A DNA stretch of 64,000 nt from an uncultured Desulfospira sp. (GTDB taxonomy: Bacteria; Desulfobacterota; Desulfobacteria; Desulfobacterales; Desulfobacteraceae). Position numbers and translations under genes: made by a program. The stretch covers positions 2,560,001 through 2,624,000 of the forward strand of contig OY760175.1 of the NCBI GenBank assembly GCA_963663165.1, read 5' to 3'. The notes beneath the pieces are model-generated. The model saw nothing but the letters and a program-made list of their open reading frames with translations. It was not told the DNA's origin and did no database searches. This document shows positions 22,015 through 62,343 of the stretch, piece after piece. How positions within the stretch are numbered: position 1 is the first letter of the stretch; each line of letters begins with the position of its first letter.

Positions 22015-22162
22015 GCTATTTTGAATTACCTCTTTTCTGTCTTTTAACGGATATTTCATCAAGTTTTTTAGGATAATCGGAGTCGCCTCCTAGCGGCGGG
22101 GTTGGACCAAGCATAATGCTGCGGTTGCAAGCCGCAGATTTAGGTCGTTAAAGTGTTGACTA

Positions 22163-22383
22163 TATAACTGCCATGGGCCACAAGCCCACAACGAATAATG
22201 AAACTGAAGATACCAGCAACGGTAGCCTATAAATTGGGCACCGCAGGTGCTTCGCCCTCTTGTCTCTTGTTTCTTGTCTCCAGTTTCTTATAACGGCCAC
22301 GGGCCGTCTTGGTTATCCAACCAAGCACCGCCCACAACAAATATTGAAAGTCTTCTCAGGACCTTAGTGAGACTTTCTTATAA
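22163..22383 (+). repeat. Two tandem TATAAC-bounded modular hairpin units (126 and 90 bp)
   Basis: Shared scaffold TATAAC-N-GCCAYGGGC..GCCCACAACRAATAWTGAAA..TTTCT; third unit inverted at 31127-31222. Confidence 0.8.
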
Positions 22384-22703
22384 AAGGCTATAAGTTCTTA
22401 GATTAAAATTTTTGGACCCGCCTGATGAGATTCAAATAGTGTAACGGTATTATAGATTTAAGACATCAACAAAATATCAAATTTTTGTATAATTTAAGCT
22501 TGTTGCAAGAGGGGGTCAATAAAAACAGAGTTGCAAAATAATGTAACGGGCTAAAAATAATTCAATAATGATCTGTGGTTTCGCGTTTTTCAACAATCAG
22601 TCAGGCAAAAATCGACATCAAAATATATAAGGATAAAATACAGGCAGGCCAACTTCGGCTTATACCAAAGTGACCTGTTGATGCAGATAGGTTGTGATAA
22701 GGA

Positions 22704-23366
22704 TTATTGGGGAGGCAGATCTGATATAAATTCCAGGGCAAGATTAATATCAACAAATTGATGATTCAGTTCCTTTGCTCTGTCCCGGCAGTCTGTACAG
22801 ATTTCTTTAAATTTGCGCATATCACCTTTAACAGACATATAAATCTGCTCAACGGCTTCCTGCTGGATGTCTTTGTATTCTTCAATGAAGTCCTCGACCT
22901 CTATGGGATACAAAATCAGGGTTTTCAAGCGGCTGAGTATATCAGGATGGTTCCGGCTCAAATAAGTTCTCACCTTCGGCAAGCCCGCAAATACGATGGG
23001 AACCCCGGCATCAATAATCCGTTTGAGATATGGCCAAACCCGGGCGTCCAAGTCATTAGCCTCATCTATGACGATAAAACAATTGGAGAGATTACAGATC
23101 ATTTTCAGGTACTGGGGAGTCCGGCGGTAAGTGGCAGTGGCCTCATAATTTAATTCCTTGAGTATTGCGGCCAGGGTTTCATGTATATTAAACAGAGACT
23201 CAACCCATACAGAATGGAGCTTTTTGGGGTGCAGCAATTTTAAAAACCGGGTTTTTCCTGCACCAAAGCCGCCTTCAATGAGGACGCTTTGGCCTCTGTA
23301 GATCCGGTTATAAGTGGCAGACAAGTATGAGACCCTTCGTTTATCACTGATAAAATCCTCTTTCAT
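22704..23366 (-). CDS. AAA+ transposition helper ATPase (TnsC/MuB/ExeA-like)
   Basis: GGFGAGKT, IVIDEA; coupled to the transposase by an ATGA overlap. Confidence 0.85.
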   Translation of the reverse strand: MKEDFISDKRRVSYLSATYNRIYRGQSVLIEGGFGAGKTRFLKLLHPKKLHSVWVESLFNIHETLAAILKELNYEATATYRRTPQYLKMICNLSNCFIVIDEANDLDARVWPYLKRIIDAGVPIVFAGLPKVRTYLSRNHPDILSRLKTLILYPIEVEDFIEEYKDIQQEAVEQIYMSVKGDMRKFKEICTDCRDRAKELNHQFVDINLALEFISDLPPQ

Positions 23367-24990
23367 GTTATGTCTCCGTGGGATGCATAAGTGGCTACAT
23401 GGTTTGTATTTAAAGATTTTTGGCAGTCGAGCATAAATGCATTGAACAGAGCCTGATTTTTACGGTCATCCGGCTGGTTCATCTTTTTCATGTAATCTGC
23501 GTACCTTGATTGATTATGCTTCAGCACTTGTTCCGCCCGGGCCAGGGTGATGCCTTTATGATAAACTTCGATTAAAACAGGCCGGTCAACGGCCATATTG
23601 TGCTTTTCTAAAAGAGCGATAATGGTGTCAAGTTCATCAGGCGGCACAGGCGAAGGTTCCGGTGCCGGCGGTCTGTCAAAGGGCTTTTTTGCAATGGCTT
23701 CGCCCAACAGTATACCGTCTTCATTTTGCTCAAAAATAAAAAGCTTGTCCTTGTATCTGGATATTTTCACCGGTGTGCTTTTATGTTTGCTGAACTTATC
23801 TGCACCACTGGTCACATAATAATCCCGCTTGTCATGACGGATGGTTCTGTTTTTGGATACGGTGGCTTTGATTTTTCTGTAGCCGTACTTCATATATTCC
23901 TGAACCTGGTTCGGGGTAAAAAGCAAGGTGTCTGCCCGGGTTGATAAAAAATCATCAAATTTCTGTGCCGGCACCCAGGCACTGACCACCCCGTCTTCGG
24001 TAAAATAATGTTGTGTATGATTATGAACGTTTCGGTAGTCGCTGAGCATAGTGCTGCTCCTTAATTCCTGAAGGCTGATATCAAGGAGGGTTACCGTAAT
24101 TTTTTCCTTTCTTCCCCGCTTGAAGTCATATTCGGTAACGGTTTTCACAATCCTGTCCTCAAAAGCTTTGATAATCCGTATTTCAAAATTGTGAAGGCTC
24201 CGGTGTGAAGATTCCAGGTGTGCCTTATCCTTGGGTGAATACACCCTTGAAAAATCCGCAGCCAAATAGAAGCCTTGCGGTGTAGAGTGCGCAAGGTTAA
24301 TGGCATTGATGGGACGTTTTAGGTTTAAAAAACCCTTTGCCTGGTCAGGCCTGATACCGATTTCTTGCAAAGGGAAAGGGGTACTCAATAAAAAACGGGT
24401 AAAAAGATCCACAGAGTTCAGGCTGCTTTCGGTAAAATAAAAGTCCAGGATAAACATGTTCCTGGAACCGGTATCAAATATTTCAATAACCTGTGGCTTT
24501 TGCCAGTTACCGTGTTCATCTCTGATCCTTAGATATTGAAATTTGCAGCCGTCAACCTGGATCAACGCAAATACCGGCACCGACTTAAAGGCATGAATTA
24601 CCGGGACCTGGTCCTGTTCATCCTCTTTTTCCAGGTAAAATTTAAGATTTTCCCTTTTGACGCATCGCCGAAGTGCATGAAGACTGATGGGTCTGCCCAA
24701 TTCCTGTTCAAGCCAGTAATGATAATTTTTAATGGTCCTGGCTTTCCGGGTGATAAAAATGAATCCCCGGGATGAGGGATCGCATGACGCCTTGACCATT
24801 TCAATAAACCGTCTTCTGGTTTGCTCATCTATTGCTCTTGGCCGTCCGCTGCACTTGCGGCCTTCCATAACTCCTTTTTCAACCAATAAAAGGGCTGGCG
24901 GGATAATTCCGGTTTTCTTGTACTGGTCCTTGTAATATTTTTTGGATCGTCTCTTGGCAGACCCGGTTTTATTCATGATTTTTTTGTGCA
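23363..24990 (-). pseudogene. Element A DDE transposase, main part; true N-terminus at 29239-29200 is separated by element C
   Basis: QVDGC..RPDQ..HLESS DDE triad; removing element C restores MNDLTIDDRFHLLL-HKKIMNK in frame. Confidence 0.85.
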
Positions 24991-25128
24991 TGAGAATGGT
25001 CACAAAAAATCATGGAAAAATTGAAGATAATTTGCAAGATATGTCAGGTTTGAGGCAGAAGTTCCCCTGTTTATCTCGCAAATAATCGTGAAACTCCTGC
25101 CTCCCCACCCAATAACAGGGCAGGAGAT

Positions 25129-25716
25129 ATGCTATCAGAAGTTCTGAAAAACGAAAGTTTTTTTTGGGATCTATACAAAATAGATCTGGCAACAGCCGAA
25201 CGTTATAGACAGATGAAGTGCCCCCACTGCCAGGGACCGTTGTATTATGCCAATTATCCGCGCAAACCCAGGGGGGAGCCTGAAGGGTTGTCTGAAGAAT
25301 GTTTTTTACAATTCAGTTTATGTTGCGGAAGGGAAGGCTGTCGACGTCGTTTGATCCCGCCAACCTGCCGTTTCCTTGGTAAAAACATTTACTGGTATGC
25401 GGCCATTCTGACGATTGTGTCCGACTGGCAGAACCAATCTGTAGGTATCACGATGTCCAGGTTTGCTGAAACAATCGGTATCTCCCGCAACACCCTTAGC
25501 CGCTGGGTCAGCTTATTCAAAGAAATATTTCCAACAAGCTCTCAATGGAAGAAAATCCGGGGCCGAGTACCTGCAAGCGTAAAAAATGATCGTCTTCCAG
25601 CAAGTTTGGTCAACTTCTATCTGCATCAACAGGCGTCCATCAAAAAAACGTTGATCTCCTGTTTGTCATTCTTGTCTCAAGGCAGTGAAATATCACAAAA
25701 AATAAGGGCCGGGTAA
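25129..25716 (+). CDS. Transposon-associated Zn-finger plus HTH protein
   Basis: CPHC...CC..EGCRRR; ISRNTLSRW HTH-like segment. Confidence 0.7.
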   Translation: MLSEVLKNESFFWDLYKIDLATAERYRQMKCPHCQGPLYYANYPRKPRGEPEGLSEECFLQFSLCCGREGCRRRLIPPTCRFLGKNIYWYAAILTIVSDWQNQSVGITMSRFAETIGISRNTLSRWVSLFKEIFPTSSQWKKIRGRVPASVKNDRLPASLVNFYLHQQASIKKTLISCLSFLSQGSEISQKIRAG

Positions 25717-25831
25717 TCTCACGCAGAAGATGGGCGTGGCCTTGGGCGCTCAACTGTTCTATCAAAGGGGCCGGGATTTTTATCAGCATTTCGCTGAAAA
25801 TTTTAACTCAAAATTGAAAGGACCCCGGCCT

Positions 25832-27277
25832 ATGAACAGTAAAAACCAAAGTCCGGTTGATAACTGGGCTTTGTTTCGCTTCTCAGTCGTTGGCGGTTTG
25901 CTGGCAAATCCGCCGGCCAAAGGTGAGCTGCGCAAGGAACTGGAAAAGCTTTCCTATCAGATTTACACCCATCCCATCACGAACGAATCAACGGTATTTC
26001 ATTTTTCAACTATTGAAAGCTGGTATTACAAGGCAAAAAATGCCCAGGACCCCATTATTGCTTTAGGGCGGAAAGTTCGTTCTGACTATGGCGGTTCAAT
26101 TGTATTCACACCTGAACTGATCCGGATGCTGGGCAGACAATACCGGACTTATCCGAACTGGAGCTACAAACTGCACGCAGATAATTTCGCAGCAGAACTC
26201 CAGGAAAAGGAGGCTTCAGTATCGGTACCATCCTATGCCAGTGTCCGGCGGCGGATGATCGAAAGGGGGTGGACCAGGAAGCCCTCAGCAAAGAAAAAAC
26301 AGACAGCGGGTATGAAAATTGCCGCAAAGCGGTTCGAAAGCCATGAAATCCGAGGATACGAAGCAGAATATGTTCACAGCCTGTGGCATCTGGATTTTCA
26401 TGAAGGCAGTCTGCGGGTGGTGGATAACAACGGTAACTGGTATACGCCCAAAGCCTTATGTATTCTTGACGACCATTCCCGCCTGTGCTGCCACATCCAA
26501 TGGTATTCAGGAGAAACCACCCAGGATTTGATTCATGGATTGACCCAGGCATTTTTCAAAAGGGGGCTTCCCAGGGCACTGATGACGGACAACGGATCTG
26601 CCATGACCTCCCATGAGTTTTGCAACGGTCTTAAAAAAACAGGGATACTTCATGAAACGACACTGCCCTACAGCCCTTATCAAAACGGTAAGCAGGAAGC
26701 CTTTTGGGGAACCCTTGAAGGCAGATTGATGGCCATGCTGACCCGGGTGGACCCTCTGACACTGGAATATCTCAATCACAGCAGTCAGGCCTGGGTCGAG
26801 ATGGAATATAACAAAACCAGGCATAGTGACATCGGCACATCTCCTGTTCAACGCATGCTTGAAGGCAAAGATGTTTCCCGGCCGGCACCGGATGAAGAGC
26901 AACTGAGGTTCGCCTTTACAGTCTGCGAATCCAGAAATCAGCGAAAATCTGACGGTACCGTGTCCATCAACGGGGTAAGATTTGAGATCCCTTCCCGGTT
27001 TCACCATATCCCTCGGTTACATGTCTGCTTTGCCAATTGGGATAAATCCATGGCCTGGCTCATGGACCAGAGAACCGGCAAACAGATTGCGCAGATCTAC
27101 CCCCAGGACAAAATCAAAAATGCTTCAGGAAAACGAAAGATCAAGTCGAGACCTGAGCATACCATTCTACCGGATGAAACATTGAAAGAATCCGAGCCTG
27201 CATTATTAAGAAAACTGATGGCCGAGTATGCCCAAAGCGGCATGCCTCCAGCCTATCTTCCCAAAGGAGAATCATGA
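25832..27277 (+). CDS. rve-type DDE transposase with Mu-like C-terminal domain
   Basis: LWHLDFH, LDDHSR, TDNGSA, PYSPYQNGKQEAFW; GAAAGGA RBS before ATG 25832 (ORF open from 25730). Confidence 0.9.
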   Translation: MNSKNQSPVDNWALFRFSVVGGLLANPPAKGELRKELEKLSYQIYTHPITNESTVFHFSTIESWYYKAKNAQDPIIALGRKVRSDYGGSIVFTPELIRMLGRQYRTYPNWSYKLHADNFAAELQEKEASVSVPSYASVRRRMIERGWTRKPSAKKKQTAGMKIAAKRFESHEIRGYEAEYVHSLWHLDFHEGSLRVVDNNGNWYTPKALCILDDHSRLCCHIQWYSGETTQDLIHGLTQAFFKRGLPRALMTDNGSAMTSHEFCNGLKKTGILHETTLPYSPYQNGKQEAFWGTLEGRLMAMLTRVDPLTLEYLNHSSQAWVEMEYNKTRHSDIGTSPVQRMLEGKDVSRPAPDEEQLRFAFTVCESRNQRKSDGTVSINGVRFEIPSRFHHIPRLHVCFANWDKSMAWLMDQRTGKQIAQIYPQDKIKNASGKRKIKSRPEHTILPDETLKESEPALLRKLMAEYAQSGMPPAYLPKGES

Positions 27278-28101
27278 ACAACAAACAGCTTCTGGCTTAT
27301 TACGGCCTTAAATGGAACCCTTTTTTTCCTAATATCCCCGTGGAAGCCTTATGGCATCCGCCATTGATGAACAGTTTTATTTTTCGTCTTGAGAATATGA
27401 CCCTGAACGGGGGCTTTGCTTTGATCAGCGGGGACCCCGGCCTTGGCAAATCCAAGGCGTTGCAGATGATTGCCCAAAAGTTCGGTAAACTTGACGAGGT
27501 AGTTGTCGGGGTAATGGAACGTCCCCAAAGCAGTGTCGGAGACTTTTACCGGGAAATGGGAGTTTTGTTTGGTGTCAATTTGAGCCCTGCCAACCGGTAC
27601 GGCGGGTTCAAGGATCTTCGGGAGCGCTGGAAAAGTCATGTAAAAACCACCTTGTTCCGGCCCATCCTGCTCATAGATGAGGCCCAGGAGATGCTGACCG
27701 GATGCTTAAATGAACTGCGTTTGTTGAACAGCGCGGACTTTGACTCCCAAAACCTGTTGACCACCGTGATTTGCGGCGATGACCGGCTCCCGGAACGGTT
27801 CAGATCAAGATCCCTGGTATCGCTGGGAAGCCGGATGCAGTTCCGGCTGACGCTGCTTCCCTATGTCCGGGATGACCTGCTGGATTACATGGATCACAGC
27901 CTGAACCAGGCCGGCGCCCCGCACTTAATGACGAAAACTCTGATCAGGACCCTTGCAGACCATTGCGCCGGCAACCTGCGGGTTCTTAACAATATGGCCG
28001 CAGACCTGCTGACTGCGGGGATTGAAAAAGAACTCAATCAATTGGACGAAAAGCTTTTTATGGAAGTCTATTCCAGACAGCCGCCCAATAAAAAATCATA
28101 G
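27274..28101 (+). CDS. ExeA-like AAA ATPase
   Basis: YGLKWNPF, GDPGLGKS, LLIDEAQ, GNLR. Confidence 0.9.
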   Translation: MNNKQLLAYYGLKWNPFFPNIPVEALWHPPLMNSFIFRLENMTLNGGFALISGDPGLGKSKALQMIAQKFGKLDEVVVGVMERPQSSVGDFYREMGVLFGVNLSPANRYGGFKDLRERWKSHVKTTLFRPILLIDEAQEMLTGCLNELRLLNSADFDSQNLLTTVICGDDRLPERFRSRSLVSLGSRMQFRLTLLPYVRDDLLDYMDHSLNQAGAPHLMTKTLIRTLADHCAGNLRVLNNMAADLLTAGIEKELNQLDEKLFMEVYSRQPPNKKS

Positions 28102-28110
28102 GAGAACAAT

Positions 28111-28293
28111 ATGGGTATTTATGATGATCCGGACATGAAACTGGAAGAAATCACACAGGAATTGGAACATTTTATCCTGGATATGGTCCTTGCCGGACTT
28201 GAAAGCTTGAATATGGAATATCGGGCCTTCAGGCGATTCCAGAAACAAAGGCTCACGGAAAAGAACCGTCATAAAGAACACGAGCCGTTTTGA
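28111..28293 (+). CDS. Small hypothetical protein (60 aa)
   Basis: AGGAG RBS; lies between the ATPase and the primase. Confidence 0.5.
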   Translation: MGIYDDPDMKLEEITQELEHFILDMVLAGLESLNMEYRAFRRFQKQRLTEKNRHKEHEPF

Positions 28294-28330
28294 ACGTACG
28301 CCCGGACTCCAAAGGTCCGGGCCTGCCTCA

Positions 28331-29119
28331 ATGGAAAAAATACTTTGGAAAATCGGCAATTATTTTAAGCACCGCTTCAGCCTGGCAGTTCTTGATGAAA
28401 TTAAGGGCCGGTGGCCCGTTCTCCCCTCTTGTAAAAACATCCCTTATCTTAAAGCTGAAAATGCCGGAGGAAGGCACATCCTGATCAGACCTGATCCTGT
28501 TATTCAGCCTTATTATTTTCTTGCCGACGATTTAAACATTGACCTGCTTATCCGGCATCATCAATCCATATCAAACCGCTTTAAACCAGGCAGGATGGTT
28601 ATAGAAACATCTCCCGGCAATTATCAAATTTGGATTCACAGTGACCGTCCGTTAAGCCTTCCCGAAAAAAAGTATTGGTTGGAAAACATGCACAGTGATC
28701 CCGGCGCCGACCCGAAAAACAGGTGGGGCAGATGCCCCGGGTTCAGGAACAGAAAAGCAAAACACAGAACGCCTTCAGGACAATACCCTTTGGCAAAGCT
28801 ATTATGGGTGGACTGGAAATGCCAGGCTATTGTCCCTGAAATAGAATTATCCTCCCAACCTCAAGAAGTCTTTTCCCATCAACCCCGGGGGGGAGTGTGC
28901 CATAACGGTAATATTTCCCGCTCCCTCTATGATAAGGGTGACGAATCTGCCACTGATTTTGCATATGCTCTGGCCCTCTATAGAAGAGGTTTCTCACGAA
29001 TGGAAATTTACAATCGCATTATCAATGAAAGGCAGGATTGGATTAATCATGCGGGTGAACGAAAAAAAACACAGTATCTGATCAGGACATTACAGAAAGC
29101 TGAAAAAATTATCAGTTAA
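28331..29119 (+). CDS. RepB'-type (archaeo-eukaryotic primase superfamily) DNA primase
   Basis: FLADD, IETSPGNYQIW, GADP..R.GRCPGF.N.K; C-terminal DESATDFAYA helical domain. Confidence 0.82.
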   Translation: MEKILWKIGNYFKHRFSLAVLDEIKGRWPVLPSCKNIPYLKAENAGGRHILIRPDPVIQPYYFLADDLNIDLLIRHHQSISNRFKPGRMVIETSPGNYQIWIHSDRPLSLPEKKYWLENMHSDPGADPKNRWGRCPGFRNRKAKHRTPSGQYPLAKLLWVDWKCQAIVPEIELSSQPQEVFSHQPRGGVCHNGNISRSLYDKGDESATDFAYALALYRRGFSRMEIYNRIINERQDWINHAGERKKTQYLIRTLQKAEKIIS

Positions 29120-29231
29120 AATCGGGCTCTCTTGGCCTCCGGGAAAGCCCTTATTTACCATGAAACGTTGTCCATGAATTATCGTGATTGCTCTCAGCAG
29201 CAGTAAATGAAAACGGTCATCAATCGTCAGA

Positions 29232-29789
29232 TCATTCATTATCTGCTCCCTTTGATACAATCTTTTCGTATATGACCCGGTGCCATAACAATGCGGCCTG
29301 ACGGGAGGTTTTCTGCCAATGATCATGCTGGGCCACACGGACCTGTTCAAGCATTGCCTCTACAGCAGCCATGTATTCATTGGCAATTCGATCTGTCAGA
29401 TCCGGGTTGCTTACCGGAACCGTTTTCCGGGCCTCAATAAATCTTTTGATATTTCGTGCGGTCAGTTCCATGCCGCTGTTTATGATTTCCCTCCAGATAC
29501 TGCGTTGTTCTATGGAGTCCATTTGAGTAAGGGGACGGACCTGGGATTCGTTGGCAGGCAGCCTGTCGCCAATTGGCGACAAATTGTAGATCACTTCATA
29601 GGCTCTGATCAGGCGGTAGGCATAAGCCTTGCCCATATCCCACCGCTGCCTGGTATATGTTTCAAACGACTCAAACAAAGCCTGTTTGTATAAACGGTTA
29701 TCACGAATTTCTTTCAAGGCCTGGCCGATTTTATAAAAACATTCCTGGTTGCGACCAATCAGGGTTTCAAGCTCAAGCAACCGTTCCAT
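29232..29789 (-). CDS. Hypothetical HTH-like DNA-binding protein of element A
   Basis: IGQALKEIRD..LY...SFE.Y...RW....AYRLI, LPANESQVRPL; no methyltransferase motifs. Confidence 0.7.
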   Translation of the reverse strand: MERLLELETLIGRNQECFYKIGQALKEIRDNRLYKQALFESFETYTRQRWDMGKAYAYRLIRAYEVIYNLSPIGDRLPANESQVRPLTQMDSIEQRSIWREIINSGMELTARNIKRFIEARKTVPVSNPDLTDRIANEYMAAVEAMLEQVRVAQHDHWQKTSRQAALLWHRVIYEKIVSKGADNE

Positions 29790-29791
29790 AT

Positions 29792-30148
29792 TTACTGCCC
29801 TGCCGGCATGGGTCTGCCGACCATAGCAGCAAGAGCCGTCAATTTTGCTGCCTGAACCTGGGGTGCAGTATTTATTTGTTTCAAAAACAAAACACTATCC
29901 CGGAAGCCATAACCCTTGATTTTCATGACAAGGTCGATGGTATTAAAATTCTTTTCGCATCTGAAGCACCGGGCCAGGTTCGTGGCTGGATTTACAGCGG
30001 TTTGAAATTCATTGCACAAAGGGCATAGAAAACGAAAATAGCCATCCCTGATCTTGGATGGAATCTGTAAATGATCCCTGATCAGCATATCAACAGGGAT
30101 ATTGTTTCTCAGTTCAAATAATTGCCTGGATGAAAATCTGTTCTTCAA
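29792..30148 (-). CDS. Stand-alone DnaG-type zinc-ribbon (CHC2-like) protein
   Basis: CPLC..CFRC..NTIDLVM...F.DSV..L; AAGGAGGTG RBS, TTG start; paralog at 61530-61838. Confidence 0.8.
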   Translation of the reverse strand: MKNRFSSRQLFELRNNIPVDMLIRDHLQIPSKIRDGYFRFLCPLCNEFQTAVNPATNLARCFRCEKNFNTIDLVMKIKGYGFRDSVLFLKQINTAPQVQAAKLTALAAMVGRPMPAGQ

Positions 30149-30404
30149 AAGACACCTCCTTGTTTTTTAAATTTCAGGTGCCTTTTTTATATCATCGGCC
30201 AGAGCCGTCTGTCAGTTGCCTCTTAAACTGGAATGGGGATTACTTTGTTGATATCTACCTGTATTATCAGCGGATTACGCACATGATGCCTCTTAGAATT
30301 AAACCTCGATTAGTCTGTCAATATACCTTTACATTACAGTTAGTTATCCCAACCATGTCTCTTGAAACCAATACTCGATTAGTCGTTTATGCCAAGGGGA
30401 TATT

Positions 30405-30782
30405 TTATGGAAACCCCCGGATTATTTCCCTGCTGTAACCGATAATTTGGGTAACCAGGTATTGGATGACAATTGCCGGCTTGATTCCATATTCCGTTAT
30501 AATGACTTCCATTGGCAAAACCGGCTCTTTGCATTTTTGATATGAAAGAACAGAAAGACTCCCGGATGTTTGTTGCTCCTCAGCTTCTTCAAGCTTTTTT
30601 GCCAGGTAGTTATTTTTACAGACAGCTTTGTTTTTCCTGTTCCACTCTTCACATTGCCTCCGGTGAAGCTCATTTTGGCAAGCCGGGCTACATGTTTTCT
30701 GCCGTCCTTTTTGTCTTACATCAGGAGTGAACCATTTACGGCAAATAGAGCAAGGACGTTTTCCTCGTGAATTTTTTGCCAT
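30405..30782 (-). CDS. Cys-rich hypothetical protein
   Basis: CSICRKWFTPDVRQKGRQKTCSPAC; homolog at 61804-62343. Confidence 0.75.
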   Translation of the reverse strand: MAKNSRGKRPCSICRKWFTPDVRQKGRQKTCSPACQNELHRRQCEEWNRKNKAVCKNNYLAKKLEEAEEQQTSGSLSVLSYQKCKEPVLPMEVIITEYGIKPAIVIQYLVTQIIGYSREIIRGFP

Positions 30783-30844
30783 TATTTCTTCTCCAAGATT
30801 TGAATCAGGGAGATTTTATGTACCAAATTTTGAAGGATGCAGCA

Positions 30845-30951
30845 GCGGGGTCTGTCGGCGGGATAGGCGGGGTATGATTTTTATTTTATTTGCTGGGTAT
30901 AGCGGCGGGATATCTGCCCGTTACATTATTTCGCTATGAAACTGCGGGGTA
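30845..30951. repeat. Six GC(G/T)GG(G/A)T(A/C) boxes in the right end of element A
   Basis: Copies at 30845, 30858, 30867, 30892, 30905, 30944. Confidence 0.75.
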
Positions 30952-31126
30952 AGCGTTACACTTTTTGAATCTTACCACCCGCCACAATTCCATGGGGTGC
31001 CCCCTTTTCAGAATACATCCTTATCATTGAATTGATTTAAATTGCCATCACCCGCAGGCAAGTTACATGGGATTGCCCTGAAAAGCTCCGGAAGAAAAAA
31101 GCGGGTTTCCAAATATTCACCCATAT

Positions 31127-31222
31127 GTTATAAGAAAGTCTCACTAACAAGCTGAAAAGACTTTCATTTTTCGTTGTGGGCGATTCTTGGTTGGATAATC
31201 CAAGCCGTCCGTGACGGTTATA
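31127..31222 (-). repeat. TATAAC-bounded modular hairpin unit 3
   Basis: About 80% identical, inverted, to 22289-22383; same 90-bp period. Confidence 0.8.
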
Positions 31223-31257
31223 GAAAAAAAATCGTAAACAATCAAAAGGTGAACGAG

Positions 31258-34200
31258 ATGAAAAATCAATGTTTAAAGGCAATTGTGGTTTTTTTATCCC
31301 TCCTTCTTTTGTTGCTGAACGCTGCTGATACCGCCCAGATAACCATCATTTACGTTGACGCCGAAGCCACAGGAACCGGTACCGGAAAAAGCTGGGAAAA
31401 TGCTTATCCTTATTTGACGGATGCTTTAAATGCGGCAGCATCAGGCAATACCATTTACGTTGCCGAAGGGGTTTATTACCCGGATCAGTCCGCAGCCATT
31501 CCGAACGGCACCGGTCTTAGGACCGCTTCATTTTCCCTTCTGAACAATGTTACCATTTATGGCGGGTTTGACCCGTCGGTGGGAGTTGACACCCTGGCGG
31601 AACGAAGCTGGAAAAATTATAAAACATATCTTAGCGGCAATATCGGAGACATAAAATCTGCCAGTGACAACAGCTACCATGTGGTAAAAAACTCAAAAGA
31701 TGTTACCAGCACCGCCATTCTGGACGGGTTCATCATCGCCGCAGGCAATGCCAACGGCAGCAGCCTTACAAGTTCAGGCGGCGGCATGACCAATGAAAAT
31801 GCATCTCCCATCATTCGCAATTGTGTTTTTTCCCAGAACCAGGCATCAGGCCAGGGTGCCGGGATGTACAATATCTACCAGAGCGAGCCGTATCTTTTCA
31901 ATTGCGAATTTAATGCCAACACTTCCGGCAGCGGCGGCGGCGGAATGTATAATGACGGATCTTCCCCTGAGCTGGAAGCATGCACGTTTACCGGCAACCA
32001 GGCCTTAAGCGGTGCCGGTGTATACAACAACGGGTCAAGCCCGGTTTTAACCGGCACGGTGTTTACGGACAACAGCGCCGGCTACGGCGGCGGGGCCGTA
32101 TACAATTACAATGCATCCGCTCCCGTATTTTATAACTGCATATTTTCGGAAAATTTTGCCGCCTATGACGGCGGGGCCATTCATAATGCCTATAATTCTT
32201 CGTCCCTGGCCGTGAACTGCACCTTTACCGGCAACCTTCTGGACAGCACCAACAGCGGCCACGGCGGTGGCATATATAACCGATCAAATTCCAGGACCGA
32301 AATTGCCAATTCCATTCTCTGGGATGATGAGCCAGACGAACTCTATCCCACGGATTCCTTTACCGTCACCTATTCCGACATAGAAACCAGCACCGTTTTT
32401 CCAGGAACGGGCAACATGAACGTCTCCCCTCTTCTGGATGCAACGTTCCACCTGGACGAAGACTCACCGTGTATTGACGCCGGGAGCAATGATGCGGTGC
32501 CGGCCTTTCTTACCGTCGATTTCGAAGGTGACGGCCGGATTATCAACGGCGATGGGGATGATCCTGAGGCAGTCGTTGATATGGGCGCGGATGAATCGCC
32601 TTTTGTAATGGTCACCCATGATCTTGCCGTTGGCAGTTCCGCCGGCGGGTCGGTAACCCAGCCGGGAGAAGGAATTTTTTCATTTGACCATGAGCGCATC
32701 GTCGATCTGCTTGCCGTATCTGAAGGGGGGTACCGGTTTTTAAACTGGAGCGGCGATACCGGCCAGGTGGCCGGGATATTTTCTGCCCAGACCACCATTA
32801 CCATGGACGACAGCTACAGCATTACGGCCAATTTTGAACAGGATATTGATCCTGACCTGGTGGTCACCGATGTCTGGGAGGAAAACGGCGGCATCTGTTA
32901 CCAGCTTCATAATATTGGCGAGGCAACGGCCCTCAAAGGGCACTATACCAGGCTTGTGGTGAACAATAACACCGCAGCAGATGACCTGGTCGACAACGAG
33001 CTGCCGCCGGATGGAAGGATCAGCCGCTGCTTTCCCCAATACATCTGGGACTGCACCTCGTCTTCCGACGAGATAATGGTTTGTGCTGACGGGGCCGGGC
33101 AGATCACCGAAAGCGATGAAACAAACAACTGCCGCTCCGAGTCATGGCAATGTGACACCACGGCGCCCCTTATTACTGACCCGCCGGTCGTTTCCCAGGT
33201 GGACCCCTACACCGTGGACATCAAATGGGATACGGATTGCGACGCCGACAGCGTGGTCATGTTCGGCACATCAGCCGGCGTGTTCTCAGGACAGGCAGCG
33301 GACCAGCAGTCCAGCCAGAACCACCAGATTCGCCTGGAAAACCTTGCTGCGGGCACCACTTATCACTACCGGGTCCTGTCAACAGATGCCGGCGGCAACA
33401 CCATAGAAAGCAAAGACTTCTTTTTCCAGACCGCCCCCCTGGCAGACACAACCCCTCCGGTTGTCTCTAAATTAACGGCTGTAAAGGGAGACGGGGCACA
33501 GCTCTTTTACAAAGTCTTAGCACAGGTCACCGATGATACCGGCGTGGAACGGGTAGCGTTTTACCTGGATGGCACCCTTGTGGGGGTTGACTATTTAGAA
33601 CCCTTTGAATACAAACTGGCACCCGCGGATTTAGGGCTCAGCCGGGAGGACTTTTTTAAGGCGCACACCCTGACGGCGGTTGCCGTAAGTCATGCCGGCG
33701 TGGCCGGTATGGTTGATCTGCCCTTTGAGCCGGCCTATGAGTGTGCTGACATCAATATGGAAATGCAGGCCCCATATCCCGACGACACCTACTATATTGA
33801 TTACACCTCGGTTCCTTCTGGCACCACCATCCCTATCCGGGTCCGGGCCGCCATGACGGAACTGGACTGCCATTATTTCGGCATGTCCGGCCTTCCTCCC
33901 GGGGCCAGCAATTTCTTTTGTGATGAGATATACCTCCCGGTGACCGAAGTCCGTTTCTATGTCAATTCAGTGCTGATTGAAACGGTTACCCCTTCGGCAG
34001 CGGATGAATTCATTTTTGAGATTGACTGGGATATAAGCGGCAAAACCACCGGAACCTATTTCATCAGGGTGGACGCCATTGTGGATGATGAATGCCGCCA
34101 GACCATCACCAACACATTTGCCATTGAAAAAGGTGAGCCGGAGCTTGACGTCACCCGGGAAGTCACGCGCATAGGCAATTATTTTGAAATCCAGCTTCGC

Positions 34201-36924
34201 CTCCGGAACCGGGGGACAGCAACAGTCACCTTTGACCGGCTCGAAGATTCGGTTGACGGGTTTCAGCCCATCGAAAGAAGCGACAGCGACTATGATGTGG
34301 TCCCCAGCTGTAACAATGACGGCACCCATTGCGACGTTGAAATCGATTTTGCCGGCCGCTACTATGACCTTGCAGCCGGAGACAGCAAATGGGTTTCCTA
34401 TCTGGCCGTACCAATCCTGCACCCGCCCGATGAATCCGTGGATTACCGTATCGGCGCCACCCCGGTCCGGGTTGTTGATTATTATGAGATGCACCCCCAT
34501 GAATTCGACAGGCCGTGCGCTTTAACCCAAGATGATTATACCCTGTCAAGTGAAGTCAACCGGGCCATCAGGAATTCCGACTATCTGATCATCACCAATC
34601 CCGACAAGCTGTTTTCCACCAGCGCCGATGCGGCCGGTGTCAACAGCCTGCTGTCCGCCATGGCCGAACTGGCCAGCCTGCGCAACGCAATTTTGGGCTA
34701 TCTTTACGGGTCTGATTCCAATGATACCGGCTGGATCAAGGAGTGTATCCGGACATGGGGAACCCCCATGCAGGGTATGGACGGCGTTGATGAGCATTAC
34801 CTGTCAAACGGCTACCTGCTTCTGGTCGGAGAAGTTGAAATCATTCCCTCGTTCACCAAAACCGTTAAAGATAAATGGTGGTTCATCACCATTGCAACCT
34901 ATCATATTCACTTTACCGATATGCCTTACGGAGACACCAACGGCCGCATTGACCCCGAACTGAGTGTGGCCCGGATCATCGGTGATGACCCTTCCGAGCT
35001 GATCATCCCCATCCAGGCAAGCATCAATGTGATCAACGGCGAGCCCGGCTTTGAATTTGACCGGTCCCATGCACTCATCGTGAGCGGCAGCGGTGATGGT
35101 GTGTCTTCATTTGAAGGAAACCTGGATGATGTTGAAGATATCCTTGAGGATGAGTTTACCGTCACCAAAAGGAAAAAAAGGCGGGTTGAAGACTCCGGCG
35201 GCAACATCACCACAGAATTCAAGCTCTATGATGCCAACAAGGACCACTTGTTTTACCGGGATCACTGCAATCCCACGGCCTGGTCAGGCGTGATCGGCAC
35301 AAGCGATTTTACCGGTTCTGATCCGGTGGATTTCGAAGATGCCAAGCCCTTTGCCTTTGCCTGCTGCTGCCAGGCCGGCCAGTATGAGGATGACTCGGAA
35401 GATGCCGCTGACCGCACCAATATCGCCGAGTCTTTTTTACAGCATGGGGCGCCGTCCTATATCGGGGCAACGGAAAATTCATTCAGGGGACAGAACAACA
35501 GCGCGGCCAAATGGTTTTACAACCACTGGGTCAATACCGGCAAAACAGTGGGCCAGACCTTCAGGGAACTCAAAGTTCACCTTGGCGATTTCCAGGGCGA
35601 CTACTGGAGTTATGAGTATAACCTGTACGGCGATCCCAAATATGGCGGCAGCGGTGTGGCGGCAGCGTCTCTGGCTTCAAAGGCAATGACACTGCCGGAA
35701 TCCCCCTATGGGCTGGTGGTGCCTGATTATGAAGTCAAATCACTCAACGGCGAGGACCATGTGAGCATTCCCGGCGGCAATATGATTCTGGCCGAAGACA
35801 AGCCCGCAGTTCCCTATTACAAGGTCAGTATTGAATTTCCTGAAGGATATGCCGTCCATGACGTCACCTTGGAAGAGCGTTCGGAACCGATCACCACCAC
35901 CGGGCTTAACATCCCGCTTTCCGAGATGGGCCTGGATAATTCAACCGCAGGCAGCACCGCTTCCGCCGCAGGGGGAGAAGAGTGGTGGCCTCCCCAGGAG
36001 GCGGTTTTTGAGTATCAGTTTGAAACAAGGCCTGACAGGACATCGGTGCTGACCATCACCGTTTTCCCGTTTTACTACAATGGCCTGACCACCGATGCAA
36101 AATTCTACAAAACCTACACCTTTAACATTGACTATGATTCGGGCGGGGTGGGCATTGCCCTGCTTTCCACAGAAAAGGAAAATTATGCTCAAGGGGAAAT
36201 CGTTCAGGCAGACCTGTGGCTCACCAGCGCGGAAGACCCCCAGGATGTGATTGTCGAGGTTCTGGTCAAAGAGGAAAGTTCAGATGAGGTGGTTGACGGC
36301 CTGCTTTTGCGCACCTTAAGCCAGGTCACACAAACCGCATATTTTGCCCTTGAATGGGACAGCAGCAATTTTCCTGCCGGGGCCTATTATCTTGAAGCCA
36401 ATATCAGGGACAGCTCAGGCCATCTCATAGACCGGCGGAATAAATCCATCAGTACGGGGATGGCCTCCATAGCCATTACAGATTTTACGGCGACACCGGA
36501 TGCCCCGTATATCAATACCGGGCTTGAATTTAAAAATATTGGCAGCGTTGATGTTTCCGGCAAAGCGATCATTATTATACAGGACAGCCAGGGGGCCGTT
36601 GTTGCCGAATTTCCCCATGATTTTGAAGATCTGGCCCCATGGGGGAGCCTGAGCTTTGCTGACAGCTGGGATCCCTCCGGGGCCAGTGGCCAGACATATC
36701 ATTTCCAGGCATATGTTCTATATGACAGCGGGTGTTCTGAAGTCCGCAGCCTGTCGGTTCCCTTATGCCTGGACCTGAATGAATTTGCCCAAAGCTTTGG
36801 TTCCGCATCCGGCCAGGGCCATTATGATGCTGCCTTTGATTTTGACCGGGATGGCGATGTGGACGGTAAAGACCTGTCCGTCATAAACATCTACAGTCCC
36901 CTGCGGACATGGGGGTGTGAGTAG
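31258..36924 (+). CDS. Giant secreted mosaic protein: beta-helix repeats, InlB-B-like, CARDB, FN3, Ig, C25 (gingipain-like) peptidase, C25-propeptide-like and dockerin-like domains
   Basis: Signal peptide from ATG 31258; GGGMYN repeats; SPCIDAG..DMGADE; DYLIIT, YLLLVG..IP, TD.PYGD..PELSVARI, YNLYGDP; DFDRDGDVDGKDL. Confidence 0.8.
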   Translation: MKNQCLKAIVVFLSLLLLLLNAADTAQITIIYVDAEATGTGTGKSWENAYPYLTDALNAAASGNTIYVAEGVYYPDQSAAIPNGTGLRTASFSLLNNVTIYGGFDPSVGVDTLAERSWKNYKTYLSGNIGDIKSASDNSYHVVKNSKDVTSTAILDGFIIAAGNANGSSLTSSGGGMTNENASPIIRNCVFSQNQASGQGAGMYNIYQSEPYLFNCEFNANTSGSGGGGMYNDGSSPELEACTFTGNQALSGAGVYNNGSSPVLTGTVFTDNSAGYGGGAVYNYNASAPVFYNCIFSENFAAYDGGAIHNAYNSSSLAVNCTFTGNLLDSTNSGHGGGIYNRSNSRTEIANSILWDDEPDELYPTDSFTVTYSDIETSTVFPGTGNMNVSPLLDATFHLDEDSPCIDAGSNDAVPAFLTVDFEGDGRIINGDGDDPEAVVDMGADESPFVMVTHDLAVGSSAGGSVTQPGEGIFSFDHERIVDLLAVSEGGYRFLNWSGDTGQVAGIFSAQTTITMDDSYSITANFEQDIDPDLVVTDVWEENGGICYQLHNIGEATALKGHYTRLVVNNNTAADDLVDNELPPDGRISRCFPQYIWDCTSSSDEIMVCADGAGQITESDETNNCRSESWQCDTTAPLITDPPVVSQVDPYTVDIKWDTDCDADSVVMFGTSAGVFSGQAADQQSSQNHQIRLENLAAGTTYHYRVLSTDAGGNTIESKDFFFQTAPLADTTPPVVSKLTAVKGDGAQLFYKVLAQVTDDTGVERVAFYLDGTLVGVDYLEPFEYKLAPADLGLSREDFFKAHTLTAVAVSHAGVAGMVDLPFEPAYECADINMEMQAPYPDDTYYIDYTSVPSGTTIPIRVRAAMTELDCHYFGMSGLPPGASNFFCDEIYLPVTEVRFYVNSVLIETVTPSAADEFIFEIDWDISGKTTGTYFIRVDAIVDDECRQTITNTFAIEKGEPELDVTREVTRIGNYFEIQLRLRNRGTATVTFDRLEDSVDGFQPIERSDSDYDVVPSCNNDGTHCDVEIDFAGRYYDLAAGDSKWVSYLAVPILHPPDESVDYRIGATPVRVVDYYEMHPHEFDRPCALTQDDYTLSSEVNRAIRNSDYLIITNPDKLFSTSADAAGVNSLLSAMAELASLRNAILGYLYGSDSNDTGWIKECIRTWGTPMQGMDGVDEHYLSNGYLLLVGEVEIIPSFTKTVKDKWWFITIATYHIHFTDMPYGDTNGRIDPELSVARIIGDDPSELIIPIQASINVINGEPGFEFDRSHALIVSGSGDGVSSFEGNLDDVEDILEDEFTVTKRKKRRVEDSGGNITTEFKLYDANKDHLFYRDHCNPTAWSGVIGTSDFTGSDPVDFEDAKPFAFACCCQAGQYEDDSEDAADRTNIAESFLQHGAPSYIGATENSFRGQNNSAAKWFYNHWVNTGKTVGQTFRELKVHLGDFQGDYWSYEYNLYGDPKYGGSGVAAASLASKAMTLPESPYGLVVPDYEVKSLNGEDHVSIPGGNMILAEDKPAVPYYKVSIEFPEGYAVHDVTLEERSEPITTTGLNIPLSEMGLDNSTAGSTASAAGGEEWWPPQEAVFEYQFETRPDRTSVLTITVFPFYYNGLTTDAKFYKTYTFNIDYDSGGVGIALLSTEKENYAQGEIVQADLWLTSAEDPQDVIVEVLVKEESSDEVVDGLLLRTLSQVTQTAYFALEWDSSNFPAGAYYLEANIRDSSGHLIDRRNKSISTGMASIAITDFTATPDAPYINTGLEFKNIGSVDVSGKAIIIIQDSQGAVVAEFPHDFEDLAPWGSLSFADSWDPSGASGQTYHFQAYVLYDSGCSEVRSLSVPLCLDLNEFAQSFGSASGQGHYDAAFDFDRDGDVDGKDLSVINIYSPLRTWGCE

Positions 36925-58603: not shown

Positions 58604-59623
58604 TCATAAACTGTCAAGCCAGGCAAGGATTTCAGCATTATTTTTCCAGTCGATCAGCTCATCAATCTTCTTGTCTTGATTCATTTTCGATTGCATATAT
58701 TCAATGAGCTTATCCTGGATTTCCCGTTTTTTTGACAAGTCCAGCTGCAAATAAGCCATTGTTGATTCAACGCTTTGATGGCCCAGGCGATTTTTGATAT
58801 CCGATACGGGGGCCCCTGAAGTCACCATATTAACCGCACAAGAATGTCTGAAGCAATGGGCCGGACTCAGACCTTTCAACCGTTTTTCCGGCAATGCTTT
58901 TGTCAGATATCTTCGGCAAATTTTGTTGATACCATGCCGGGTCATTCCCCGCCTCCGCTGATTAATGAACAGCCGGTGTGCAAATAATGGGATGGGGGCT
59001 ACTCTATGATTGGTGATATAGTCTGAGATCAGTGATGCGGTTTTGGACCACAGGTTGATCAACCTGTATCGGTTCCCCTTGCCCAGGACCGCAATGGTTT
59101 CGTTTTCAGGATCAAAATAATCAAATTCCAGTGTGGCAATCTCGCTGGCTCTGGCACCGGAGTCGTAAAGCAGATGGAGAATGGTAAAATCTCTCATCCC
59201 TTCCTTCTTTTTTAAATCGACGACACTGAAAATTTTCATTATTTCTTCTGGGTGTAAAAATCCCATCACCTTCTTTTGAGCCCTTTTCTGAGGGATGGTC
59301 AAAAGAGCTTCTGCGACTCGTTTTTTGTCCGGATGCATGAATCGGATCATCTTGGCCAGCGACTTGATCACGGCCAAGCGGTTGTTCCGGGTCTGGACGG
59401 TATTTTTTCGGTCTGTTTCCAAATGATTCAGGAAGCCCAGAACAGCGTCAGGTGTTAAATGGTCAATTTTCAAGGATTTGATTTTGATCGAATGATAATC
59501 CGCCAAAAAATGCAGAAACAAAGAAAAAGCCTGCTGGTAAGTTTTAATGCTTTGTTCGCTGGTCCCTTTTATATGGGGCAGGTATTCATAAAAATACTGA
59601 TGCAGGCAGGTGGATAATCTCAT
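58604..59623 (-). CDS. Tyrosine recombinase (RitC-like)
   Basis: TRNNRL, GARASE, GKGNR, HCFRHS, LGH..Y. Confidence 0.92.
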   Translation of the reverse strand: MRLSTCLHQYFYEYLPHIKGTSEQSIKTYQQAFSLFLHFLADYHSIKIKSLKIDHLTPDAVLGFLNHLETDRKNTVQTRNNRLAVIKSLAKMIRFMHPDKKRVAEALLTIPQKRAQKKVMGFLHPEEIMKIFSVVDLKKKEGMRDFTILHLLYDSGARASEIATLEFDYFDPENETIAVLGKGNRYRLINLWSKTASLISDYITNHRVAPIPLFAHRLFINQRRRGMTRHGINKICRRYLTKALPEKRLKGLSPAHCFRHSCAVNMVTSGAPVSDIKNRLGHQSVESTMAYLQLDLSKKREIQDKLIEYMQSKMNQDKKIDELIDWKNNAEILAWLDSL

Positions 59624-60594
59624 ACATCCTCACTTCTCAACATCGAAAAATCAAGCATTTGGCGGCGATGCTCTGCATCCAGAACTCTCAGATATTTGGT
59701 CGTATACTTGTATTCGCTGTGTCCCATGTAAGCGGCCAGCACCGGCAACGCATTTTGGGCAGACTTGCCCTGTTGTTTAATTCGTTTCAGTGTATTTACA
59801 GCAAAGGAATGACGAAGTGAGTGCCGTGTCGGGTTGCTGAAATTTGTAGCACCAATAATTTTTTTGTGCTGATCAAGGTTAATGGCCGAAATCGCTTTTT
59901 TAAATTTTCGATCCATGAAATGGCGGGGTAACTTTCCGCCATCTCCTTTGATCAATAATAAAGGATGCACATCGGCAATAAGTAAAAGCCGTCGCACGTT
60001 CAAAAAATTGTCGATTTCACAAGAAACGGCCTTGGGTATTGGGATCAGTCGGTCTTTTTTAAATTTTGTTTTCTCAATATAGATTGTCCTTTCTTCAGAC
60101 CTGTAGTTCTTTTGCAGCAAATTGAACGTCTCCGATATTCTCAAGCCGCACCGGGCCATCAGCAGAAAAGAGATATAACCGCTAAAATCGGTGAGGTAAT
60201 ATTTTTTTGTTTTTCGCATCTGTTTTATGACAGTTTTCAATAAAAGATCCGTTTCTTTCGGAGAAAAAATAAAAGGGATAATCTGATTTTCCGGCAGCTC
60301 AGCAATCTCCTGTATGGGATTTGTCAAAATCAGGTCTCTGCGGATCAGATATTTGAAAAACATTTGAAACGTTCGAAAAAATGTATTGATGGAACGGTTT
60401 TCACAATTGAGGTCTGAACGGAGTCGGATGAAAAACAACGGATCAAATGATGTCCAGGTCACATCCCTTTGGGCAACATACCGATCCAGCAACCGAAGGC
60501 TGCACAGCAGCATTTTATCTGAATATCCCAATTGAAGACGGTATTCGATAAAATCCTCTATATATTCGCTAAGAAAGCTTTTAAAGCGTTTCAC
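59620..60594 (-). CDS. Tyrosine recombinase (RitB-like)
   Basis: PFIFS, GLRISE, TKF.K.R, HSLRHSFAV, LP.L..YMGH..Y. Confidence 0.92.
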   Translation of the reverse strand: MKRFKSFLSEYIEDFIEYRLQLGYSDKMLLCSLRLLDRYVAQRDVTWTSFDPLFFIRLRSDLNCENRSINTFFRTFQMFFKYLIRRDLILTNPIQEIAELPENQIIPFIFSPKETDLLLKTVIKQMRKTKKYYLTDFSGYISFLLMARCGLRISETFNLLQKNYRSEERTIYIEKTKFKKDRLIPIPKAVSCEIDNFLNVRRLLLIADVHPLLLIKGDGGKLPRHFMDRKFKKAISAINLDQHKKIIGATNFSNPTRHSLRHSFAVNTLKRIKQQGKSAQNALPVLAAYMGHSEYKYTTKYLRVLDAEHRRQMLDFSMLRSEDV

Positions 60595-61540: not shown

Positions 61541-61838
61541 GATCAGGTGCTCTTGTATTCAAAATAATCTGAAGATATTTGACACTGTCAACAAAACCAA
61601 TGTGCCGACAGGCCATTACCAGATCTATGGTATTAAAATTCTTTTCGCATCGAAAACACCTGCTCAGGTTCGTCTTAGGATTAACTGCAGTCTGAAATTC
61701 ATTGCACAAGGGACACAGAAAACGGAAAACCCCTTCACTTATTTTGGCTGGAATACCCAGTTCCGTTTCGATCAACACATGAATGGGTATTGAATTTCGT
61801 AATCTATAAAGTTCCTTTGAAGAAAATCGTTTGCCCAT
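61530..61838 (-). CDS. Stand-alone DnaG-type zinc-ribbon (CHC2-like) protein
   Basis: 36/38 aa identical to 29792-30148 across the Zn ribbon. Confidence 0.8.
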   Translation of the reverse strand: MGKRFSSKELYRLRNSIPIHVLIETELGIPAKISEGVFRFLCPLCNEFQTAVNPKTNLSRCFRCEKNFNTIDLVMACRHIGFVDSVKYLQIILNTRAPDHDV

Positions 61839-62343
61839 GCTGACACCTCTTCTTTTTGGTTAGTTCCTTCATAATATCTGGTGTCAATTTTACCGTCTCC
61901 TGGTCCGTGGCATCAATAATCTCTTGTAACGCATTTTTGTTAAGGAGGGTGTCAAACCCAATAAAGACAAGGGTCTTGGCCGATATTAAATCTTGTAACG
62001 GTATTTGAATTAAATCCATCGAAGATCCTTTACCAGCAATGGTTTTGGCAGTTTTTATCTCTTGTAACGTATTTTCAGTTAAGGATGGCTTTCCCGGAGG
62101 CTTTGTTCGCTTCCAGTAACCAGGATTGCTTTGGCGCCATTCCTGAACACGGACCACATTCTCAGGCCCTGAAAAATAATCCTGATTCTTTGGCTTATTC
62201 AGCCATTTTTGCTGGCTGTGTTTTTTACTGGCAATTTTGCATTCGGGTTCGTTACAAAATTTTTGCCGTTTCAAATGACGGGGATCTGGCTTGAATAAAT
62301 TTTGGCAGTTTTTACACCTGCGCTGTCGGATTTGTTTTTTCAT
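61804..62343 (-). CDS. Cys-rich hypothetical protein with LQ(E/D) repeats
   Basis: CKNCQNLFKPDPRHLKRQKFCNEPEC; AAGGAGGT RBS. Confidence 0.78.
   Translation of the reverse strand: MKKQIRQRRCKNCQNLFKPDPRHLKRQKFCNEPECKIASKKHSQQKWLNKPKNQDYFSGPENVVRVQEWRQSNPGYWKRTKPPGKPSLTENTLQEIKTAKTIAGKGSSMDLIQIPLQDLISAKTLVFIGFDTLLNKNALQEIIDATDQETVKLTPDIMKELTKKKRCQHGQTIFFKGTL

Follow-up and report, generated by a model that had tools for sequence, protein, structure and literature searches.

A compact DDE and AAA+ transposon in an uncultured Desulfospira sp. and its likely kinship with Mu-like prophages

The window, that is, the whole stretch of DNA analysed here, comprises 64,000 nucleotides of the genome of an uncultured Desulfospira sp. 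(contig OY760175.1, positions 2,560,001 to 2,624,000), and it carries at 22423..30977 a transposon which we call element A. At this locus element A measures 8,555 bp, 4,206 bp of which are a second, nested transposon, element B. An initial annotation, made from the sequence alone, had described a precisely bounded transposon of five genes with TG..CA ends, a 24-bp terminal inverted repeat (TIR), a second subterminal repeat containing TGTAACG and a 6-bp target-site duplication. Its bounds, ends, duplication and gene set all held, whereas the open reading frame (ORF) for the transposase proved to be split by element B. The features, by position in the window, are the following.

22417-22422, no strand: target-site duplication CCCGCC, copy on the ATPase side, 6 bp
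22423-22446, + strand: right end, 24-bp TIR, with the outer predicted transposase-binding site from position 11
22533-22551, + strand: right end, predicted inner binding site of the transposase, ~100 bp inward of the outer site
22704-23366, - strand: ORF5, AAA+ ATPase, MuB/ExeA-like, 220 amino acids (aa)
23363-24990, - strand: ORF4, DDE transposase, 3' part, residues 15-555
24991-29196, + strand: element B, a separate TG..CA transposon, 4,206 bp, here with the 3-bp duplication GCA
29197-29239, - strand: ORF4, 5' part, first 14 codons, overlapping the stop of ORF3
29232-29789, - strand: ORF3, 185 aa, predicted ParB/KorB-type helix-turn-helix (HTH) domain and C-terminal helical hairpin
29792-30148, - strand: ORF2 (slot 2), 118-aa stand-alone DnaG-type CHC2 zinc ribbon (PF01807, E 1.2e-7)
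30217-30244, 30287-30314 and 30356-30383, - strand: three 28-bp cores with a 69-70-bp period, between ORF1 and ORF2
30405-30782, - strand: ORF1 (slot 1), 125-aa Cys-rich protein, type CysA, with a ratio of non-synonymous to synonymous substitution rates (dN/dS) of 0.13-0.17
30916-30934, - strand: left end, predicted inner binding site of the transposase, ~35 bp inward of the outer site
30954-30977, - strand: left end, 24-bp TIR
30978-30983, no strand: target-site duplication CCCGCC, copy on the ORF1 side, 6 bp

Read as inverted repeats, the two TIRs start with TG, end with CA and are identical at 21/24 positions. The motif TGTAACG or its complement CGTTACA occurs twice per end, at 22440 and 22542 on the right and at 30954 and 30919 on the left, the sites at 22542 and 30919 being the subterminal repeat. 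All five ORFs (Cys-rich, zinc ribbon, HTH-like, transposase, ATPase) lie on the - strand, and neither a resolvase nor a TniQ gene is present in the window copy; on both points the initial annotation was correct.

Comparison of the region by BLAST with its own genome (G000, 6.74 Mb) showed the two overlaid elements. Uninterrupted copies of about 4.35 kb had been proposed as a check, and one was found in this genome (G000:C1:3981420-3985765, 4,346 bp), identical to the window copy minus element B and its 3-bp duplication, and with a 6-bp duplication of its own. Since this copy exists, a chance origin of the ends is excluded. An empty target site for the window copy was not found in the own genome. 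Two sister subfamilies are also present, A' with three copies (~85% DNA identity) and A'' with six (~77%), and the six A'' copies do not differ from one another at any of 4,278 bp. The genome thus holds 11 copies of the family, 10 of them two-ended, and a perfect 6-bp duplication flanks 7 of these 10. Element A is a genuine, recently spread mobile element of sulfate-reducing bacteria.

Element B is unrelated to element A and was inserted after codon 14 of the 555-aa transposase gene; because it splits the gene at this point, the 546-aa ORF seen in the window is not the native transposase. Where element B ends, its final base and the adjoining target create a new in-frame ATG immediately before residue 15 (24989-24991, - strand), from which a transposase complete but for residues 1-14 could be translated. 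The genes of element B are a DUF6431-like ORF, an rve transposase, an ExeA-like ATPase, a 60-aa ORF and a RepB'-type primase, the last of which is complete (PF16793 and PF22448). Among the 11 copies of element B examined, one of which interrupts the ATPase gene in a copy of A', the duplication varied from 3 to 6 bp. The element A family and its companion elements frequently nest in one another, and a five-gene IS21 element sits inside the CHC2 gene of an A' copy (L004, G000:5552773-5557316).

Transposase homologs numbered 712 among 8,000 candidates scored. Matches occurred in 12 of 61 relatives and in 4 of 401 genomes of the phylum (one weak, 6.5e-4), and 53 loci were located in GTDB contigs, chiefly of Desulfobacterales. 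In 113 loci of insertion sequence (IS) type, 54 left and 59 right ends were found, both ends being present in 40 loci, which span 4,265-4,921 bp. The terminal consensus of the family is TGcTAAGATnCaAATAgTGTAACGC. A 15-bp site from position 11, which was itself used to define the ends, is present in 41/41 distinct left and 47/47 distinct right ends; a second site lies at 44-46 in 36/41 left ends and at 111-116 in 39/47 right ends. The ends are therefore conserved in homologous loci, the lack of such ends at homologous loci being what the initial annotation had named as refuting its reading. In genome G206 an internally deleted variant, with ~580 bp of the transposase gone, is present in three copies (L044, L169 and L170), suggesting that it was moved in trans or copied as the DNA was rearranged.

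Flanking DNA was available on both sides of 33 two-ended loci, 13 of which had a 6-bp duplication, one a 5-bp duplication and 19 none; in the 18 loci of at least 8.5 kb these numbers were 13, 1 and 4. Further copies showed a 6-bp duplication in four cases, a 5-bp duplication in one and none in one. At 20 target sites the central dinucleotide was pyrimidine-purine (YR) in 12 and CG in 8, as opposed to genome backgrounds of 0.22 and 0.05, and their flanks have 40% GC. These sites bear on the idea that ORF1-3 form a TniQ-like selector directing insertion to defined sites. Zinc-binding and DNA-binding ORFs do adjoin the ATPase, and several insertions lie in or beside other mobile DNA. However, the 20 sites have in common only the central YR/CG bias, there is no TniQ family match and, as described below, the genes of slots 1 and 2 exchange freely, so that we consider a target selector very improbable.

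The 555-aa transposase had no above-cut-off match in Pfam or NCBIfam and no sequence match among PDB chains. Searches with tblastn of 72,556 plasmids and of 50,697 phage records gave no match, and no close relative was found in viral contigs searched with this single protein. It does match PHROG 310 (E 9e-6), and its predicted catalytic residues are D160, D229 and E273, the first two invariant and the third nearly so in 29 diverse sequences, with a D229-E273 spacing of 44. By Foldseek, the model of the transposase resembles ShCAST TnsB (E 4e-11), MuA (2e-8), Tn7 TnsB (1e-7) and IstA (1.5e-7), fold matches which bear out the earlier suggestion of kinship with the Mu, Tn7 and IS21 relatives that pair a DDE transposase with an AAA protein. 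The hhalign probabilities were 0.3 for IstA, 0.2 for B3 A, 56 for RcapMu A and 64 for the transposase of element B; on these thin profiles the transposase is, in sequence, far from every characterised protein compared. ORF5 is a minimal AAA+ protein with intact motifs (Walker A G35-G37-K38, Walker B D101-E102, R146 and R184) and matches to AAA_22 in Pfam (E 7e-7) and to PHROG 296 (E 1e-10). All five ORFs are under purifying selection, with dN/dS of 0.03-0.20 in 14 pairwise comparisons.

With phages Mu and B3, element A has in common TG..CA ends with several transposase sites, the MuA/TnsB fold and the PHROG 296 AAA+ partner; it thus combines a MuA-like transposase (PHROG 310 and fold) with a MuB-like ATPase. 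According to one report, transposable prophages are defined by, among other features, a 5- or 6-bp duplication and TG..CA ends, and B3 makes 6-bp duplications (PMC8705779); element A has such ends and such a duplication. It differs in its size of 4.3 kb, in its 220-aa ATPase and in the lack of repressor, virion and lysis genes and of an N-terminal HTH, and has only five ORFs as opposed to the 36-39-kb genome of a Mu/B3-like prophage with Mor, GemA and virion genes.

The likeness to IS21 consists of a compact DDE and AAA+ pair, TG..CA ends with multiple terminal repeats, two sites per end and no resolvase. Moreover, an IS21 variant in the own genome has the same five-slot layout, and its 489-bp leader is 70.8% identical to that of A''. 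However, the 546-aa window ORF gave no match to NF033546 up to E 0.05 and an hhalign probability of only 0.3 against a 3-sequence IstA profile, and the transposase resembles IstA at the fold level only. No IstB model matched the ATPase, which Pfam assigns to AAA_22; IstB aligns over 80 columns, and the ExeA-like element B ATPase over 206. Element A thus differs from IS21 in its ExeA/MuB-like ATPase and in a 6-bp duplication that is nearly fixed.

Tn7-like elements and type V-K CRISPR-associated transposons (CAST) provide the best Foldseek matches (TnsB, E 4e-11) and have, like element A, a TnsB-fold transposase with an AAA+ partner and a short terminal segment followed by repeated sites. Element A lacks TniQ/TnsD, TnsA and Cas genes as well as a fixed target, and its duplication is 6 bp, whereas that of Tn7-like elements is 5 bp. 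None of the five ORFs matched TniQ in family scans, and the model of ORF3 matches ParB/Raf1. Tn552/Tn5053 and Tn6049 are also non-phage transposons with a DDE transposase and an ExeA-like ATPase. Tn6049 of Cupriavidus metallidurans, described as having 3.5 kb, 12 copies and a gspA-like ATPase (PMC2864759), is a precedent for the compact multicopy form. Element A differs from Tn552/Tn5053 in that its transposase has no rve match, the rve-type transposase at this locus belonging to element B; no serine resolvase ORF occurs in the intact copy or among the recurrent neighbours of 143 loci, and no res site was seen. As judged from their defining genes, element A is not an IS21, Tn7 or Tn552 element, nor is it a prophage, and by analogy it would work like a MuA/MuB module. 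The initial annotation had called its type unfamiliar, and indeed no catalogued family and no description of one were found in the openly searchable literature (including the accessible parts of PMC5977238, PMC8705779, PMC10122671 and PMC2864759), a comparison outside which lie subscription papers, ISfinder and TnCentral.

A link that the initial annotation had not seen emerged from the relatives of the two recombination genes. A profile search with the transposase among 1.84 billion representatives gave 180 matches, the distant full-length ones mostly with an N-terminal HTH and a long linker, on contigs that carry a repressor, a Ner-like gene, A, B, Mor, terminase, portal and Mu-type head genes. 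The nearest non-IS relatives of both transposase and ATPase are the A and B genes of uncultured Mu-like prophages, with identities between IS and prophage proteins of ~35-40% for transposases and 26-44% for ATPases, ORF5 included. The transposases of one group of these uncultured prophages (L069-L076, L084 and L167) have very long low-complexity linkers, with proteins of up to 1,218 aa, and gave no tblastn match among the 50,697 phage records. In addition, a full-length homolog of ORF3 lies two genes upstream of the transposase of prophage L076 (E 6.5e-18; hhalign probability 100), and prophage L075 has one as judged by clustering.

In a transposase tree of 33 rows, 12 of them of unknown context, all 11 rows of IS type group together (100/100) and the 10 rows of phage type are spread over three lineages; a quick tree of 63 rows agrees, both trees being midpoint-rooted only. 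In the ATPase tree (29 rows, with 6 outgroup rows) the IS rows are nested beside prophage L076 (93/95), and in none of 200 bootstrap trees (0%) are the phage-type rows united. It is likely, on a rooting that is suggestive, that the IS clade arose within the diversity of Mu-like phages, from a prophage early region. In the reverse scenario the IS form would be ancestral or sister, and Mu-like phages would have acquired their A and B genes from such elements. Without a root, IS and phage rows do fall on opposite sides of one branch, and the approximately unbiased (AU) test fails to reject phage monophyly (p 0.19). We nevertheless regard this scenario as quite unlikely, given that the phage-type sequences are much more diverse, with three deep lineages, that the IS clade has little depth and sits on a long stem, and that the outgroup-rooted ATPase tree places it inside the phage rows.

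ORF3 is present in 105/107 IS-type loci with enough upstream DNA. Its model (predicted local distance difference test, pLDDT, 85.7) is all-helical, and residues 1-126 align with Raf1 (Z 10.8, root-mean-square deviation (rmsd) 2.8, 116 aligned), Spo0J (Z 8.6, rmsd 2.9, 104 aligned), ParB (Z 8.4, rmsd 6.9, 131 aligned) and KorB (Z 7.6, rmsd 3.5, 111 aligned), Z values that are only moderate for helical proteins. Foldseek pointed to the same families, none of them at E <0.001. ORF3 is thus predicted to have a ParB-type DNA-binding domain, without the CTPase part. Its cluster name in the Atlas, 'DNA methylase', was rejected, as no methylase family matched and the model is all-helical. A fusion of ORF3 with the transposase (P0147) was dropped as evidence because its cluster also has an unfused 192-aa form, and fusions within longer proteins, found in 6 of 1,507 candidates (NADAR, radical SAM, PF07505), indicated no function.

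The two genes at the head of the element are exchangeable. Slot 1 may hold, in place of CysA, CysB or a DUF6431 protein, and slot 2 an HTH_36-like protein (PF13730, E 1e-5 in one of three tested) in place of the zinc ribbon. Among 74 loci the combinations were CysA with zinc ribbon (41), CysB with zinc ribbon (10), CysB with HTH (9) and other or incomplete (14). The same slot genes head the own-genome IS21 element (5 copies), which has a ParB gene, and three types of RIT element (4, 8 and 4 copies), and the sharing extends to DNA: besides the 489 bp common to A'' and the IS21 element, 141 bp are 78.7% identical between A and one RIT. That these slots are interchangeable and also head RIT and IS21 elements speaks against the idea that they encode dedicated partners of the element A ATPase. 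The initial annotation had offered two roles for the small ORFs, regulators or adaptors for the target or the replisome; the former is plausible in view of purifying selection, the CHC2 ribbon and the predicted ParB-type HTH, and it is the latter, as dedicated ATPase partners, that is disfavoured.

One of these RIT elements lies in the window itself (58604-62486); it has three tyrosine recombinases and 4 genome copies, its leading genes encode a CysA-like protein and a CHC2 zinc ribbon, and its upstream CCCCGC-rich repeats resemble those within the left end of element A (~30845-30912). A short inverted repeat, GGCTCGAAG...CTTCGAGCC, was noted upstream of the CysB gene in A'' (L002:5000-5160) and in the IS21 leader (L164), and a similar hairpin precedes CysB in one RIT type.

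The cores between ORF1 and ORF2 form an array of 2-4 units in 42/42 CysA-type loci and in 0/29 other loci. Genome-wide there were 15 matches, all within the five A/A' copies. Since the core matrix was itself built from 19 sites in 7 of the CysA loci, and since many loci are close kin, the count by locus overstates independence. The link between this array and ORF1 type CysA is a new observation. A structured RNA or a CRISPR was rejected: folding z-scores were -0.9 to +2.0 (14 of 27 arrays tested), the consensus structure was empty, and there are conserved positions within the 'spacers'. As no RNA structure was found, the best reading is that the array is likely a protein-binding DNA array.

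The following scheme of movement can be proposed. By analogy with Mu, the transposase would bind the two predicted sites at each end and, as its kinship with MuA and TnsB suggests, would nick 3' after the terminal CA, its fold and motifs pointing to DDE chemistry by D160/D229/E273. Both ends would then be joined to the target with a 6-bp stagger, target capture being assisted by the ATPase, as may be expected from its own fold and motifs. ORF3 could be a regulator or an architectural factor belonging to the element itself, standing in for the N-terminal HTH of most phage relatives. ORF1, ORF2 and the 69-bp array would be a swappable leader that is not tied to this recombinase and likely has a role in controlling expression or the pairing of ends. 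The window copy, its own transposase gene being split, may be movable in trans by intact copies.

From their perfect duplications most insertions look simple, and some events are probably replicative. One A'' copy has its left flank cut off exactly at the element end, a sign of a replicative or intramolecular event. In G206 the duplications GGCGTT and GATGAT are swapped among three sister copies; the swap chain did not close, and homologous recombination between copies that are 99.5% identical also explains the swaps. An A' copy abuts an A'' copy at G000:6328348/6328351, its right end facing the left end of the latter across a 2-bp spacer, CA; the duplication of the A'' copy, GGCGCA, finishes with the same two bases.

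This junction recalls IS21, in which a circular intermediate with abutted ends is formed, and raises the question of copy-out transposition, where one end would be joined a few bases from the other and the resulting circle integrated. Such a route would fit the absence of a resolvase gene, the two sites per end, the five-slot layout of the own-genome IS21 element and a D229-E273 spacing which we take to be close to that of IS21. However, the junction is the only one among all loci examined and an adjacent deletion explains it too, IstA and IstB family matches are lacking, and the nearest relatives are phage genes, which are necessarily replicative transposers. No circle junctions were found in the assembled contigs of 4 of 11 listed runs, which is uninformative as contigs drop rare variants. 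Copy-out therefore seems rather unlikely to us.

The swapped duplications and the deletions at element ends would also fit a role of slot 2 in replication, in which the CHC2 ribbon or the HTH_36 protein would bring the primase or helicase of the host to the branched product of strand transfer. Both slot-2 types (PF01807 and PF13730) occur N-terminally in replication-initiation proteins, and element B has its RepB'-type primase. On the other hand, ORF2 has no catalytic primase domain, homologous recombination swaps flanks too and the chain of swaps was incomplete. Moreover, the same leader heads trios of tyrosine recombinases, which by their known mechanism make no branched strand-transfer intermediate. 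Priming adaptors are accordingly an unlikely explanation.

Altogether, we consider it fairly probable that element A is a phage-derived transposon that moves in a Mu-like manner, with ORF1-3 as DNA-binding control factors. Several observations weigh against this picture. The model of the transposase is middling (pLDDT 66.5, predicted template-modelling score, pTM, 0.37), and VIA Z-scores of 8.1-8.6 fail to separate MuA, TnsB, IstA and retroviral integrases. Phage monophyly, as said, is not rejected by the AU test, and the outgroups of the ATPase tree are long branches. In the prophage-like L167, whose 3.7-kb contig carries repressor, Ner-like, A and B genes and no others, the transposase is already short and the N-terminal HTH missing from it, so that loss of this domain does not define the IS form. 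None of 11 phage loci had the IS end motif at a terminus; the ends of these phages probably lie outside the recovered sequence. The best fold match of ORF3 is Raf1, and comparison of its profile with the ParB of the own-genome IS21 variant was blank. The array is missing from a RIT whose CysA-like gene is a distant one, and hence it could be bound by ORF1, ORF3 or the transposase. Finally, among the 19 two-ended loci without a duplication, 15 are shorter than 7.3 kb, and in such loci assembly may have fused flanks from different copies.

A more far-reaching proposal, possible but doubtful, is that element A is a natural mini-Mu. A prophage early operon would have shrunk to an IS, with the ParB-type protein as a free-standing substitute for the enhancer-binding domain of MuA, and would have added a universal leader cassette, made up of the Cys-rich protein, a primase-type zinc ribbon or initiator-type HTH and the cassette's own 69-bp DNA array. 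Elements with DDE, IS21 and tyrosine recombinases would trade this cassette among themselves as a common module for control or for coupling to replication.

Arguments that transposable phages are akin to Tn7, Tn552 and IS21 usually rely on folds, at identities of 10-15%. Since the IS and the prophages described here share transposases at ~35-40% identity, ATPases at 26-44% and a third gene, the step from phage to IS becomes open to direct study. Small, free of TniQ and with two sites per end, the system is also a simple one in which to study transposition of MuA/MuB type at a 6-bp stagger. A leader common to three unrelated recombinase classes, together with its linked DNA array, points to a control module, no description of which was found in the literature covered above.

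Outside its duplication, element A is bracketed in inverted orientation by an interspersed repeat of 100-220 bp (window 22162-22388 and 31128-31227) with hundreds of BLAST matches genome-wide. An inverted 100-bp pair (22284-22383 and 31128-31227) was considered as part of element A and rejected, being this abundant genome-wide repeat. To the right of the element, at 31174-36924, lies the gene for a secreted-type protein of 1,916 aa with repeats and with segments that we take to be gingipain-like.

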